Shown: positions 1-64,000, counted from the stretch's first letter. The stretch: DNA of 64,000 nt from Candidatus Stammera capleta (GCA_036689385.1 CP144810.1:21194-85193), one strand, 5' to 3'. The notes: generated from the letters alone by a model not told the origin. Numbers and translations: made by a program.

Positions 1-70
1 TTTCTACTTTTATTTTATATTTTTCTTTAATTTCAAATTGTTTTCCACCATTTTCTATTATTGCATACAT
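1..70 (-). CDS. rplU: 50S ribosomal protein L21, N-terminal fragment (runs off window edge)
   Basis: Reverse strand from ATG (complement of 68-70) reads MYAIIENGGKQFEIKEKYKIKVE, matching the canonical L21 start MYAxxxxGGKQ. Confidence 0.6.
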   Translation of the reverse strand, partial: MYAIIENGGKQFEIKEKYKIKVE

Positions 71-358
71 ATATTTGATTTTTAATTATATTTTATATTT
101 TAATTGATTTTATCAAATAAATATTTTATATAAAAGTATTAAATATATTTTTTTATATTTAAATATTTTTTTTTAATTATATTATTTATTTAATTTATTT
201 TAAATGTTTTATATTTTTGTTATTATATAATTTAATATTAAATGTTTTTTATATTATTAATTTATATTTATAAAATTATTAATTTTATATTTTCTTTTTT
301 ATTTTTAGTTATATTTATTTTATTTTTTTATATTATTTTTTTAAATTTTAGGTGTTAT

Positions 359-1801
359 ATGAATTTAAATTTTGTAGTTGATAAAATATTATATAATAAT
401 AATATTTTATTATCTGATATTTCAGATATGGTTAGTAAATTTAATTGTTATGATTATGGTGATATTTTTTTTCAAGATGGTTATAAAGAATATTTGTTAT
501 TAGAAAATAATAAATTAAAAAATAATTTTTTTGAATATATAAAAGGAGTTGGTGTAAGATTAAATAAAAGTGATAAAACTTTTTTTTCTTATACAAATAA
601 TATTAATAAAAATAGTATATTTAATTTAATTAAAAAATTAATTTTTTTAAATAATAATAATATTTTATCTAAAAATAAAAAAATATTTATTTTACATAAT
701 AAAATAATTAATAAGGTAAATTATTCTTTAAATTTTAATTTAAATAAAAAAAAAATAGATATTCTTTTTAAATTATATAATTATATTAAAAAAATAGATA
801 ATAGAATAAATTTTATTTCATTAAGTTTACTTTGAAAATATGATTTGATTTTAATATCTAATACTGATTATGAAATTACTTATGATATTAGACCTTTAAT
901 AAATTTATCAATAAAGGTTCAAATAGAAAATAATTATAATAAAGAAATTGGAATAAGTGGTGGAGGAGGTTGTTATTGTTTTAGTAATTTATTAAAAAAA
1001 AAAAAAAATAATATTTTTTTAATATATTATTGGGCTAATGAAGCTGTTAGAATTGCAATAAATAATTTAAATGCTAAAAATGCTCCTGTAGGGAGTATGC
1101 CTGTAATATTATCTAGTGGTTCTCCAGGAATATTATTACATGAAGCTATTGGTCATGGTTTAGAAGCTGATTTTAATAGAAGAGGAACATCTTTATTTTT
1201 TAATTGTTTAAATAAAAAAGTAGCTTCTAGTAATTGTACTATAATTGATAGTAATAATATTAAAGAAAAAATAGGTTCTTCTAGTATTGATGATGAAGGT
1301 ATTAAATGTCAAGAAAGAATTTTAATTAAAAATGGTTTTTTAATTTCTTATTTATTTGATAGATTAAATTCACGTTTAATGAATTTTAATTCTAATGGAT
1401 GTGGAAGAAGAGAATCATATAGTCATTTACCTATTCCTAGAATGAGTAACACATATTTATTACCTGGTATTTATAAATTTAATGATATTATAAATAGTGT
1501 TGATTATGGTATTTATATAGTTAATTTATTGGGGGGACAAGTTGATATTACTTCAGGTAATTTTGTATTTACTACATTAGAAGGTTATTTAATTAAAAAT
1601 GGTAAAATTTTATATCCTATTAAAAGTGCTACTTTAATAGGTTCATCTTTTGATATAATGAATAAAATAAGTATGATAGGTAATGATTTATTTTTTGATG
1701 ATGGTATGGGTTTTTGTGGTAAAGATAATCAAAGTGTTCCAGTAAGTGTAGGACAGCCTACTTTAAAAATTGATTCAATGACAATTGGTGGTTTAAATTA
1801 A
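359..1801 (+). CDS. tldD: TldD-family metalloprotease
   Basis: ORFs 242-835 and 845-1801 share a frame and are joined by TGA 833-835. From ATG 359 (AGGTG just upstream) the product is 480 aa. Motifs: GISGGGG, HEAIGHGLEADFNRRGTS, GRRESY, PRMSNTY, GGQVDITSGNF, GQPTLKID. Confidence 0.85.
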
Positions 1802-1817
1802 TTAAAATATAAATATT

Positions 1818-2234
1818 ATGTTAAATTTAAAAAATTTTAAAAAAAATTCATGATTTTTAGTAGATGCTAAAAATAAAATTTTAGGTAGATTATCTACAAT
1901 TATTTCTTATTTATTAATAGGTAAATATAATAGTAATTTTAGATCTAATATTATTAATGGAGGTTATGTTGTAGTTATAAATGCCAAAAATATTATTGTT
2001 ACTGGTAATAAATTAAATAATAAGTTTTATTATAGACATAGTGGATATATTGGTAAATTAAAAACTATATCATATAAAAATATGTTTAATAAGTCTCCTA
2101 TAAATATTATTAGATTATCTGTAAAAGGTATGTTACCTAAAAATATTTTAGGTTCTTTAATGATTAAAAGATTAAAAATTTATAATAATAATATTCATAA
2201 ACATTATTCACAAAAGTTAATTTTAGTAAATTAA
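1818..2234 (+). CDS. rplM: 50S ribosomal protein L13
   Basis: Reads [36 protein letters not shown], the L13 WxxxDA..LGRL motif. One in-frame TGA falls at the conserved Trp. TAA stop at 2232-2234. rpsI follows, as in the rplM-rpsI operon. Confidence 0.9.
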
Positions 2235-2241
2235 GATTTAT

Positions 2242-2628
2242 ATGAAAATTTATAGTACAGGTAGAAGAAAAACTTCTTCAGCTAGAGTTTTTATGTTTGA
2301 AGGTTTAGGTATAATAAAAATTAATAATTTATTATTAAATAAATATTTTAGTTTAAATAAATATAGATATAATATTATTAATGTTTTAAAAATAAAAGAT
2401 GATTTTATAAATAAATTTGATTATTTTATAACTGTTAAGGGTGGTGGTTTATCAAGTCAATCTATAGCTATAAGACATGGTATAAGTAGAGTTTTATTAA
2501 AATATGATAATAGTTTAAAAAAAAAATTAAGGTTATTAGGTTTTATTACTAGAGATAGTAGAAAGGTAGAAAGAAAAAAATATGGTTTTAGAAAAGCTCG
2601 TAGTAAGCATCAATATTCTAAACGTTAA
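2242..2628 (+). CDS. rpsI: 30S ribosomal protein S9
   Basis: Single ORF starting [17 protein letters not shown] and ending [12 protein letters not shown], the typical S9 N- and C-termini. Confidence 0.95.
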
Positions 2629-61553: not shown

Positions 61554-61578
61554 ATTTAATCCTATTTATATATAGTTA

Positions 61579-61800
61579 TTATTTTTTATTACGAAAAATT
61601 ATTCTTCCTTTATTTAAATCATATGGAGTTATTTCTACTATTACTTTATCTCCTGTTAATATTCTTATATAATTTTTTCTCATTCTTCCTGATATATGTG
61701 CTATTATAATTTTTCCATTTTCTAATTTAACTTTGAACATAGTATTAGGTAATGTTTCTATTATTATACCTTTTATTTCTATATTATTTTTTTTCATCAT
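61579..61800 (-). CDS. infA: translation initiation factor IF-1
   Basis: [64 protein letters not shown] is near-identical in pattern to E. coli IF1. Confidence 0.95.
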
Positions 61801-61869
61801 ATAATAAATTTTTTTTTATATATTTTATTTTTTTTATTTTAGTTTATTTTTTATTTAAATTAAAGATAT

Positions 61870-62811
61870 TTATATATTTTCTAAATATTTTTGTACTTCT
61901 ATAGCTGCTATACATCCTGAAGATGAAGCTATAATAGCTTGTTTATATTTACTATTTGTTACATCTCCTGCAGCAAATATTCCTTTTATATTTGTCATAG
62001 ATTTATATTTATTATATTTATAGTTTGTTATAATATAATTTTTTTTATTTAATTTTATATATTTTTTAAATATTTTAGTATTTGGTTTATATCCTATTGA
62101 TACAAATAATCCATCTACTTTAATTTTTTTTATTTTATTATTTGTTTTAGATTTTATTGTTAAATTTATATATTTTTTTTTTTTAATATTATATAAAATA
62201 TAATTTTTAAAAAAAATTATTTTTTTTTTTTTTATTTTATTTTTTATTTTTTTATATAATATTTTATCTGATGTAAAATATTTTCTTCTGTGTATAATTA
62301 TTACTTTTTTTGCTATTTTATACATTATTAATATTTCTTCAATAGCATTATTTCCTCCTCCTATAATAGCTATTGTTTTATTTTTATAAAAATATCCATC
62401 GCAATTTGCACAATTTGATATTATTTTATTATATATTTTTTTTTTTATTTTTAATTTTAATTTTCTAGGTTTACATCCAGTAGCTATTATTATAGATTTT
62501 GATATATATTTATTTTTTTTACTAAATAAAATAAACTTATTTTTTTTAATTTTTATTTTATTAATTTTATCATTTATAATTTTTGTTTTAAATTTAATTG
62601 CTTGTTTTTTCATTTTTTTAATTAAATCAAAACCACTTATTTTTTTATATTCTCCTGGTCAGTTTTCTATATTATTAGATTTTATAATTTGCCCACCTTC
62701 ATTATTTCCTGTTATTAAAATAGGTTTTAAATTTAGTCTTGATGAATATATTGCTGAAGTATATCCGGAAGGTCCGGATCCAATTATTATTAATTTATTT
62801 ATCTTTTTCAT
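61870..62811 (-). CDS. trxB: thioredoxin-disulfide reductase
   Basis: ORF 61870-62613 extends in frame through one TGA to the ATG on the complement of 62809-62811. Reads [25 protein letters not shown]...GGQI....IENW(TGA)PG. Has the redox CANCDG motif, [10 protein letters not shown] and FAAGDV. Product 313 aa. Confidence 0.92.
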
Positions 62812-62913
62812 TTTTATAATAGTTATTTATTTAATTTATAATTTTAAAAAAATAAAGTATAATAAAACAATTATGTTAAATATTTTAAAATTATTAAATA
62901 TTATATAGTTATA

Positions 62914-64000
62914 ATGTTAAATATAAAAATTTTATTAAAGAATATAGATAATTTTATTAAAATAATTAAAAATCGTATATCTAAATTAGATATTAATATT
63001 TTATTAGAATTATATAATGATTTTAAAAAAATTAAATTTGATATAGAATTTCTTCAATTTAAAAAAAAAGTATTTTCTAAAAAATTTTATTTATTTAAAA
63101 ATAATAAAATTAATATTTTTTATTTAAAAAAAATTATTATTATGATTAAAGAAAATATTATTTTTAAAATTAAAAAAAAAAAAGAAATTTTTTTTAAATT
63201 AAATAAAATTATGTTAAATATTCCTAATATTCCAGATAAAGATGTTCCAGAAGGTTTATGTGATAATGATAATAAAATTATTAGTAATTGGGGTATAATA
63301 AAAAAAAAAAAATTTAATATTTTAGATCATGTTAAATTTTGTGAAAAAGGTGATAATTTAAATTTTAATGAATCTATTTTATTAAGTGGTTCTTCTTTTG
63401 TTATAATTAAAGGTATTATAGCTCTTTTATATAGATCTATATCACAATTTATGATTGATTATCATATTTTTAATAATAATTATAAAGAAGTTTATGTTCC
63501 TTATATAGTAAAAATTGATTCATTATATAATTCAGGTCAATTACCTAAATTTGAAAATAATATTTTTTATGTTTATAAAAAATGTGATTTATTAAAAAAT
63601 AAATTTGCTTTAATACCAACTTCAGAAGTTTCATTAATAAATTTATTTAAAAATAGAATTTTAAATAAAAAAGATTTACCTATAAAATTAGTTTCTAATA
63701 CTCCTTGTTTTAGAGCTGAATCTATTTCTTATGGTAAAAATAATAAAGGTATATTTAGATTAAATCAATTTGATAAAGTTGAATTAATTCAGATAGTTGA
63801 TCCTTTAAATTCTATGAAATATTTAGAAAAATTGACTTATGATGCTGAAAAAATACTAAGAATTTTAAATATACCTTATAGAAAAGTTTTATTATGTACA
63901 AATAGTATGAGTTTTAGTTCCTGTAAAACTTATGATATAGAATATTGATCACCAGTTAATAAAAAATTTTTAGAAATTTCTTCTTGTTCAAATACTTCTG
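62914..64000 (+). CDS. serS: serine--tRNA ligase (3' end beyond window)
   Basis: N-terminal coiled-coil arm, then ALIPTSEVSL, PCFRAESISYGKNNKGIFRLNQFDKVE and YDIEYW(TGA 63946-63948)SPVNKKFLEISSCSN. Continues past the window edge. Confidence 0.9.

Follow-up and report, generated by a model that had tools for sequence, protein, structure and literature searches.

Results

Gene content of the window

The DNA analysed here is a stretch of 64,000 nucleotides (nt), referred to below as the window, from a bacterial chromosome that we place in the Candidatus Stammera capleta group. Its codon UGA appears to be read as tryptophan (Trp), i.e., according to translation table 4 (code 4), and not as a stop as in the standard table 11 (code 11). 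Stammera is an extracellular gammaproteobacterium that digests pectin and lives as a symbiont of tortoise leaf beetles; its genome measures ~0.25 Mb. Open reading frames (ORFs) were called with TAA and TAG as the only stops, and those overlapping ribosomal RNA (rRNA) or lying antisense to genes were dropped; the resulting set of 63 genes of at least 70 amino acids (aa) is used throughout. Genes make up ~94% of the window, its G+C content is 17.8%, and the G+C content at third codon positions (GC3) is 3.8%.

The gene order fits a reduced genome derived from the Enterobacterales. It begins with rplU, tldD, rplM-rpsI, mutS, rpsF-rpsR-rplI and a single rrn operon that includes the transfer RNA (tRNA) genes for Glu and Asp. 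It continues with orn-tRNA-Gly-mutL-miaA-hflX-rlmB, fmt-def, the str, S10, spc and alpha operons, glyQS, mnmA, pgi, rpsT and rsmA, and ends with ileS, dnaKJ, glyA, tsaB, hisS, der, rnpB, cysS, folD, lon-clpX-clpP, infA, trxB and serS. Coordinates are given in Table 1. Two gene starts in an earlier note on this DNA were corrected, the first ORF of the window being tldD and ribosomal protein S7 beginning with a GTG codon.

Table 1 Features of the window, with positions counted from its first nucleotide
Feature	Position	Strand	Description
Whole window	1-64000		Candidatus Stammera capleta-group chromosome segment; UGA predicted to encode Trp
mutS	2631-5165		Mismatch repair gene mutS
rRNA operon	6499-11399	+	16S, tRNA-Glu, 23S, 5S, tRNA-Asp
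23S U1097C	9347		Base change in the GTPase-centre hexaloop
tRNA-Asp to orn	11326-11440		orn begins 23 nt past tRNA-Asp
mutL	12195-13853		Mismatch repair gene mutL
miaA	13877-14815	+	tRNA A37 isopentenyl transferase; retained; 3 TGA
miaA-hflX interval	14816-14834		hfq absent
rpsG (S7)	19048-19518	+	GTG start at 19048; end CAT TAT AGA TGA TAA = HYRW, then stop
fusA (5 TGA) and tufA (1 TGA)	19535-22859	+	Single-ORF coverage from table 11 to table 4: fusA 0.69 to 1.0, tufA 0.52 to 1.0
ORF antisense to fusA	19645-20097	-	150-aa table-4 ORF; artefact
S10-spc-alpha ribosomal protein operons	22880-36084	+	1-4 TGA in 16 of 26 genes of at least 70 aa, including rplC, rplD, rplW, rplB, rpsS, rpsC, rplP, rpsQ, rplE, rpsN, secY, rpsK, rpsD and rpoA
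Retained TGG, C-terminal Trp of S14	29388-29390	+	Aligned to E. coli S14
rpsE-rplO gap	31247-31340		rpmD (L30) missing
glyQ	36125-37000	+	5 TGA, including DN-W-ENPTLG...G-W-EV-W at 36473, 36509 and 36518
pgi	40267-41916	+	7 TGA; 549 aa, same as E. coli
ileS	43050-45818	-	19 TGA, 2 TGG; 20 pieces under table 11; 922 aa versus 938 in E. coli
tsaB homolog	50587-51027	-	146 aa
cysS	54589-55974	+	7 TGA, including SP-W-GFGRPG-W-H at 55147 and 55168
folD	55971-56810	-	In-frame TAA at 56757-56759
Other TGG codons	1031, 3618, 5305, 13698	+
Other TGG codons	43140, 45522	-

In-frame TGA codons coincide with conserved tryptophans

The gene set contains 105 in-frame TGA codons versus 7 TGG, and 37 of the 63 genes (59%) carry at least one TGA. 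Translated with table 11, each TGA-bearing gene falls into 2 to 20 fragments, with the maximum in ileS. Both figures exceed those of the earlier note, which had counted about 30 split genes in 2-6 pieces.

To see which residue each TGA stands for, the window proteins, with TGA masked as X, were aligned to orthologs from ten regions of Escherichia coli K-12. Trp was the E. coli residue opposite 89 of the 93 aligned TGA codons, compared with a Trp background of 0.9% of aligned E. coli residues (binomial P = 2e-176), and no aligned TGA fell on a Gly or Cys column (0/93). The latter count excludes antisense ORF artefacts; a first tally against tblastn matches still held these, with TGA opposite C or a stop, and they were later dropped. 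One such artefact is the ORF antisense to fusA, which 'matches' E. coli fusA on its antisense strand and, if kept, inflates the number of TGA codons opposite residues other than Trp.

The proposal of the earlier note that UGA is read as Trp across the window is thus borne out by the alignments, by the ortholog coverage and by the exchange of TGA and TGG between related genomes described below. Its eleven example codons, ten TGA and one TGG, all lie where it had placed them, each opposite the E. coli K-12 Trp that it had named. The motifs in question are AFAHYR-W in S7, TMD-W-M in EF-G, E-W in EF-Tu, R-W in L2, N-W-PP in RpoA, SP-W-G.GRPG-W-H in CysRS and DN-W-ENPTLGA...G-W-EV-W in GlyQ. The TGG among them encodes the terminal Trp of S14, showing, as had been noted, that TGG is still in use.

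The strongest single example is ileS. Here, 18 of the 19 TGA codons are located at Trp columns of E. coli IleS, and the fraction of the ortholog covered by one ORF increases from 0.10 with TGA as a stop to 1.0 with TGA as a sense codon. In cysS, five TGA codons match Trp positions of the E. coli protein, and seven Stammera relatives likewise have TGA there.

Read with table 4, the genes regain the lengths of their E. coli orthologs (fusA 707 versus 704 aa, pgi 549/549, cysS 461/461, ileS 922/938). In the comparison of tables 11 and 4 that the earlier note had suggested, the best single ORF covered on average 0.68 and 0.94 of the ortholog, respectively, and a coverage of at least 0.9 was reached for 16 of 50 orthologs with table 11 but for 40 of 50 with table 4. 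Furthermore, identity to E. coli was 50.0% upstream (5') of each gene's first TGA and 47.5% downstream (3') of it. Given these similar values, the parts beyond the first TGA are evidently under the same constraint as the parts before it.

None of the 63 genes terminates in TGA. The stop codons are TAA in 58 and TAG in 5 genes, in agreement with the earlier statement that genuine stops are TAA or TAG. For the other adequately sampled codons, the commonest E. coli partner was the standard amino acid; mismatches to the standard code were limited to CTC, GTG and TCG, each of which was aligned just 2-3 times. Since all other well-sampled codons pair with their standard residues, UGA is the sole detectable reassignment. 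Taken together, the alignments and stop codons demonstrate at the DNA level that UGA acts as a sense codon for Trp, with UGG as a minor synonym and with termination assigned to UAA and UAG only.

TGA and TGG behave as ordinary synonymous codons

TGA is the main Trp codon of the window (94%), and TGG accounts for 6.3% of Trp codons. Similar shares of the G-ending codon were found in other A/G pairs: AAG 5.4%, GAG 3.7%, CAG 8%, TTG 3.5% and AGG 5.4%. The TGA:TGG ratio follows plain mutational bias, the same as in other NNA/NNG pairs. The base after TGA was A in 56% and T in 29% of cases, and the first base of codons in general was A in 49% and T in 28%. As the two compositions are so close, nothing suggests that TGA lies in a special context for readthrough.

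The same bias is visible in codon usage at large. Among the 17,588 codons of the 63 genes, called from the first ATG, CTG, CGC, CGA and CGG are unused, and there is a single instance each of CTC, CCG and ACG. Of all residues, 41% are Lys, Ile or Asn.

The window belongs to a Stammera lineage with standard-code relatives

Relatives were sought by a scan with the DnaJ protein, taking one genome per GTDB species. The best matches, among those listed, were at least 11 Candidatus Stammera capleta chromosomes of 245-314 kb with 57-81% DnaJ identity, the highest value belonging to CP145599.1. The window is collinear over ~18 kb at ~84% nucleotide identity with CP145599.1 and CP043980.1, the two nearest among the matches listed. 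The other listed Stammera showed 72-79% nucleotide identity, and the collinear stretches overall spanned 13-20 kb. In a 2024 sequencing run labelled 'insect metagenome', 96% of the sampled words of window positions 43050-49000 were present. One 522-nt read contig at ~335x depth covered a stretch of cysS and was identical to the window; the remainder was fragmentary AT-rich noise. The DnaJ matches, the collinearity and the insect metagenome run therefore assign the window to a Stammera lineage. No identical genome was found among the matches listed, so the window probably represents a separate host-specific lineage.

In ileS, pgi, mnmA, dnaK, hisS and cysS, the columns occupied by Trp in E. coli mostly had TGA across ten Stammera loci. 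At the same columns of ileS, pgi, dnaK, hisS and cysS, TGA and TGG switch from strain to strain. A basal Stammera of the same clade, CP144774.1 (313,621 bp, i.e., 314 kb; 19% G+C), is collinear with the window at 72% nucleotide identity but differs in its Trp codons: all conserved Trp columns (27 of 27) are TGG, and ileS, pgi, dnaK, dnaJ, hisS, der and rpsT (seven genes) are free of in-frame TGA. These codons point to use of the standard code in CP144774.1. Our result independently reproduces that of the gTranslate preprint of 2026, which reported that a basal Stammera clade uses standard code 11 and has kept prfB, the gene for release factor 2 (RF2) (10.64898/2026.05.24.727570). Because this sister lineage keeps TGG at every Trp column, the reassignment arose inside the Stammera clade. 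PSpicST1, an unrelated reduced enterobacterial symbiont, also has only TGG at these columns.

rRNA operon and tRNA genes

In the E. coli rrnC operon, tRNA-Trp follows tRNA-Asp. In the window, orn directly follows tRNA-Asp (Table 1), which places the tRNA-Trp gene elsewhere in the genome, split from its ancestral site. The tRNA-Asp, tRNA-Glu and tRNA-Gly genes of the window are 79-86% identical to their E. coli counterparts. A search of the sequencing reads with an E. coli-type trpT at 80% likeness gave no match, a threshold that is borderline given this range of tRNA identities.

The rRNA genes were inspected at positions where mutations are known to affect UGA reading or termination in E. coli. 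G530, C1054 and A1492/1493 of 16S rRNA and A1067, G1093, A1913 and the sarcin-ricin loop of 23S rRNA are unchanged. The sole difference among the sites checked is U1097C in 23S rRNA, by which the GTPase-centre hexaloop 1093-1098 reads GUAACA, not GUAAUA. In E. coli genetics, this hexaloop may be tied to RF2-dependent termination.

The gene for MiaA, an enzyme that modifies tRNAs reading UNN codons, tRNA-Trp among them, is retained (Table 1). Any link between miaA and UGA decoding would be conjectural.

Other observations on gene content

Several further features concern genome reduction. Both mutS and mutL are kept as full-length table-4 ORFs, which is unusual for a ~250-kb genome of such AT bias; the C-terminal half of MutL is very diverged. 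The gene rpmD, encoding L30, is missing between rpsE and rplO, where the gap is just 94 nt, and hfq, which E. coli has between miaA and hflX, is absent there. The tsaB homolog covers profile positions 1-131 of 212, scores just under the curated cut-off and is a truncated gene.

The core of folD is open in one frame and aligns to folD of seven Stammera relatives. Near its N-terminus, the frame contains an in-frame TAA within an A-rich tract. No ATG, GTG or TTG occurs from the TAA to an ATG at 56297, and a protein begun there would comprise just the final 108 aa. Possible explanations are that the gene has a non-canonical start, that slippage occurs at the poly(A) tract, or that folD is at an early stage of pseudogenisation.

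Discussion

The reassignment in the light of earlier work

The reading of UGA as Trp is already known as a kind of reassignment and, since 2017, for Stammera itself. Code 4 was reported for Stammera by Salem et al. 2017 and is listed in the Codetta screen (PMC8629427 Table 1), and a study of 50 Stammera genomes was annotated with it (10.1101/2023.12.12.571295). The earlier note had counted the reassignment among the known ones, citing Mollicutes and tiny-genome symbionts such as Hodgkinia, Zinderia and Nasuia, but it omitted Stammera although code 4 had been published for it (PMC8629427, PMC10540940). With the code-4 Stammera described before (Salem et al. 2017; Garcia-Lozano et al. 2023/2024), the window shares gene order and TGA at Trp columns. 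Its G+C content of 17.8% falls within the literature range of 13.9-20.4%, and the 59% of genes with UGA compares with a reported 62%. The pectinase genes that define Stammera biology, encoding polygalacturonase and rhamnogalacturonan lyase, are not in the window.

Published surveys also describe the decoding machinery. According to Manzano-Marin et al. 2023, Stammera is without prfB, the anticodon CCA of trnW is unchanged, and UGA occurs in 62% of coding sequences (PMC10540940 Table 2). A 2026 survey of 49 Stammera genomes found tRNA-Trp(CCA), no tRNA-Trp(UCA), and prfB in 15 of the 49; neither tRNA-Sec nor selB was reported (PMC13462651 Table 2). The preprint cited above likewise gives tRNA-Trp(CCA) only (10.64898/2026.05.24.727570). 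A 2026 NAR paper reported that the anticodon stem of Stammera tRNA-Trp(CCA) has the normal 5 bp and that of Zinderia 4 bp (PMC13092985).

We consider it almost certain that the window is a Stammera capleta-group chromosome segment using table 4. In the decoding mechanism that the literature makes most likely, RF2 would be absent or compete only weakly at UGA, so that the near-cognate tRNA-Trp(CCA) could capture the codon by pairing its C34 with the A in third position. The extreme mutational pressure towards AT that GC3 reflects would then have turned nearly all TGG into TGA. Going by the literature, most code-4 Stammera would have lost RF2 and would use a single tRNA-Trp(CCA) with a 5-bp stem and no UCA tRNA.

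Some observations weigh against this explanation. Four of the 93 aligned TGA codons do not face Trp: the E. coli residue is K in one case and L in three, in stretches of mutL, pgi and hisS where conservation is weak. The TGA at rplP codon 139 and that at S7 codon 156 are located at the extreme C-terminus, where Trp and stop are indistinguishable. In addition, scans with a permissive threshold and with sensitive Rfam settings gave 6 tRNA genes in the window and found no tRNA-Trp, and the 64-kb window contains no prfB locus and no lysS locus either. As neither tRNA-Trp nor prfB is encoded in the window, the mechanism rests on the literature where decoding and termination are concerned.

Alternative explanations

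The alternative that fares best is a transitional code, in which RF2 is still active and UGA is translated as Trp by partial readthrough, as proposed for Providencia siddallii PSAC from a leech. Like Stammera, PSAC is an Enterobacterales symbiont with UGA = Trp and tRNA-Trp(CCA) only (PMC10540940). It represents an earlier stage, with UGA in ~20% of genes, a prfB that is present and has an internal UGA, and some genes that seem to be UGA-terminated (PMC10540940). That prfB is annotated in 15 of 49 Stammera assemblies, yet only 5 use code 11, would be in keeping with such a state. However, the window has UGA in 59% of its genes and not a single UGA-terminated gene. Moreover, with 19 TGA in ileS and 7 each in pgi and cysS, even 90% readthrough per site would leave only ~13% full-length IleRS. 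The nearest relatives among the matches listed are the smallest Stammera genomes (~245 kb), which would fit a derived lineage. We regard a transitional code as rather improbable.

A second possibility concerns the tRNA. A dedicated cognate tRNA-Trp(UCA) might be encoded outside the window, as in Mycoplasma, Hodgkinia and Nasuia. This is the commonest solution in code-4 bacteria, and the six tRNA genes of the window include no tRNA-Trp. Mycoplasmatales, Hodgkinia and Nasuia share with Stammera the reading UGA = Trp, the stops UAA and UAG and, as reported for most Stammera, the loss of RF2, but they possess the UCA tRNA, which Stammera is reported to be without (PMC13462651). As three independent surveys of Stammera gave CCA only (PMC10540940, PMC13462651, 10.64898/2026.05.24.727570), we think a UCA tRNA very unlikely here. 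Closer to Stammera in this respect is Candidatus Zinderia insecticola, an AT-extreme code-4 insect symbiont without RF2 and with tRNA-Trp(CCA) only, so that a near-cognate tRNA reads UGA (PMC10540940, PMC13092985). It differs in being a betaproteobacterium and in having the shortened 4-bp anticodon stem, which promotes UGA reading, where the stem of Stammera has 5 bp (PMC13092985).

Tiny AT-rich genomes commonly decay, and folD with its in-frame TAA near the start might be taken as a sign of this. One could accordingly suppose that the symbiont genome is decaying, with the TGA codons as true nonsense mutations and the proteins truncated. In that case, 37 of 63 genes would be disrupted, including those for EF-Tu, EF-G, RpoA, SecY, five aminoacyl-tRNA synthetases and 16 ribosomal proteins. 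The breaks are all TGA on Trp columns, never TAA, TAG or frameshifts, ten sister genomes have TGA in these columns too, and conservation beyond the first TGA equals that before it. The specificity for Trp columns, the equal downstream conservation, and the number and essential nature of the genes exclude pseudogenisation, to which we give hardly any credence.

Still less probable is that UGA encodes another amino acid. UGA stands for Gly in Gracilibacteria and Absconditabacteria (table 25), and its use for selenocysteine (Sec) is widespread; Cys would be a further candidate. The residues opposite the aligned TGA codons, Trp in 89 cases and neither Gly nor Cys in any, contradict this, as does the replacement of TGA by TGG at the same columns in sister lineages. 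Nor can Sec account for a total of 105 sites in housekeeping genes, and Stammera is reported to have no tRNA-Sec or selB (PMC13462651 Table 2).

Least probable of all, and supported by nothing in the data, is the formal possibility, given that DNA alone was examined, of a standard code with UGA edited to UGG in the messenger RNA before translation: it would need 105 editing sites in 64 kb, the TGA:TGG ratio tracks plain mutational bias, and no such editing system is known in bacteria.

Proposed decoding of UGA by a canonical-looking tRNA-Trp

A sense codon UGA read by tRNA-Trp(CCA), as favoured here, leads to the matter of how this tRNA decodes it. Loss of RF2 is usual, though not universal, in table-4 bacteria. 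The earlier note had proposed that an intact prfB, if accompanied by a tRNA-Trp with anticodon CCA only, would refute the reassignment. This is invalid for the Stammera clade (PMC13462651 Table 2): because CCA only was found in 49 of 49 genomes and prfB in 15 of 49, such a rule would wrongly reject code-4 Stammera.

Efficient decoding of UGA by a CCA tRNA-Trp with a 5-bp stem might depend on a feature undescribed in bacteria, although we consider this unlikely. Candidate features may include a Hirsh-type change in the D-arm (G24A or A9C), a C34 that is modified or undergoes C-to-U editing, or a change in the ribosome. The window holds no evidence for the D-arm, C34 or ribosomal candidates, U1097C being the sole rRNA difference at the sites checked.

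Implications

For annotation, the window needs table 4, as table 11 splits 37 of 63 genes and makes most essential genes look like pseudogenes. The reassignment as such is textbook knowledge and already documented for this very clade. Because a CCA tRNA-Trp of ordinary appearance reads UGA and a sister lineage with the standard code exists, Stammera offers a natural setting in which to study the capture of a stop codon.

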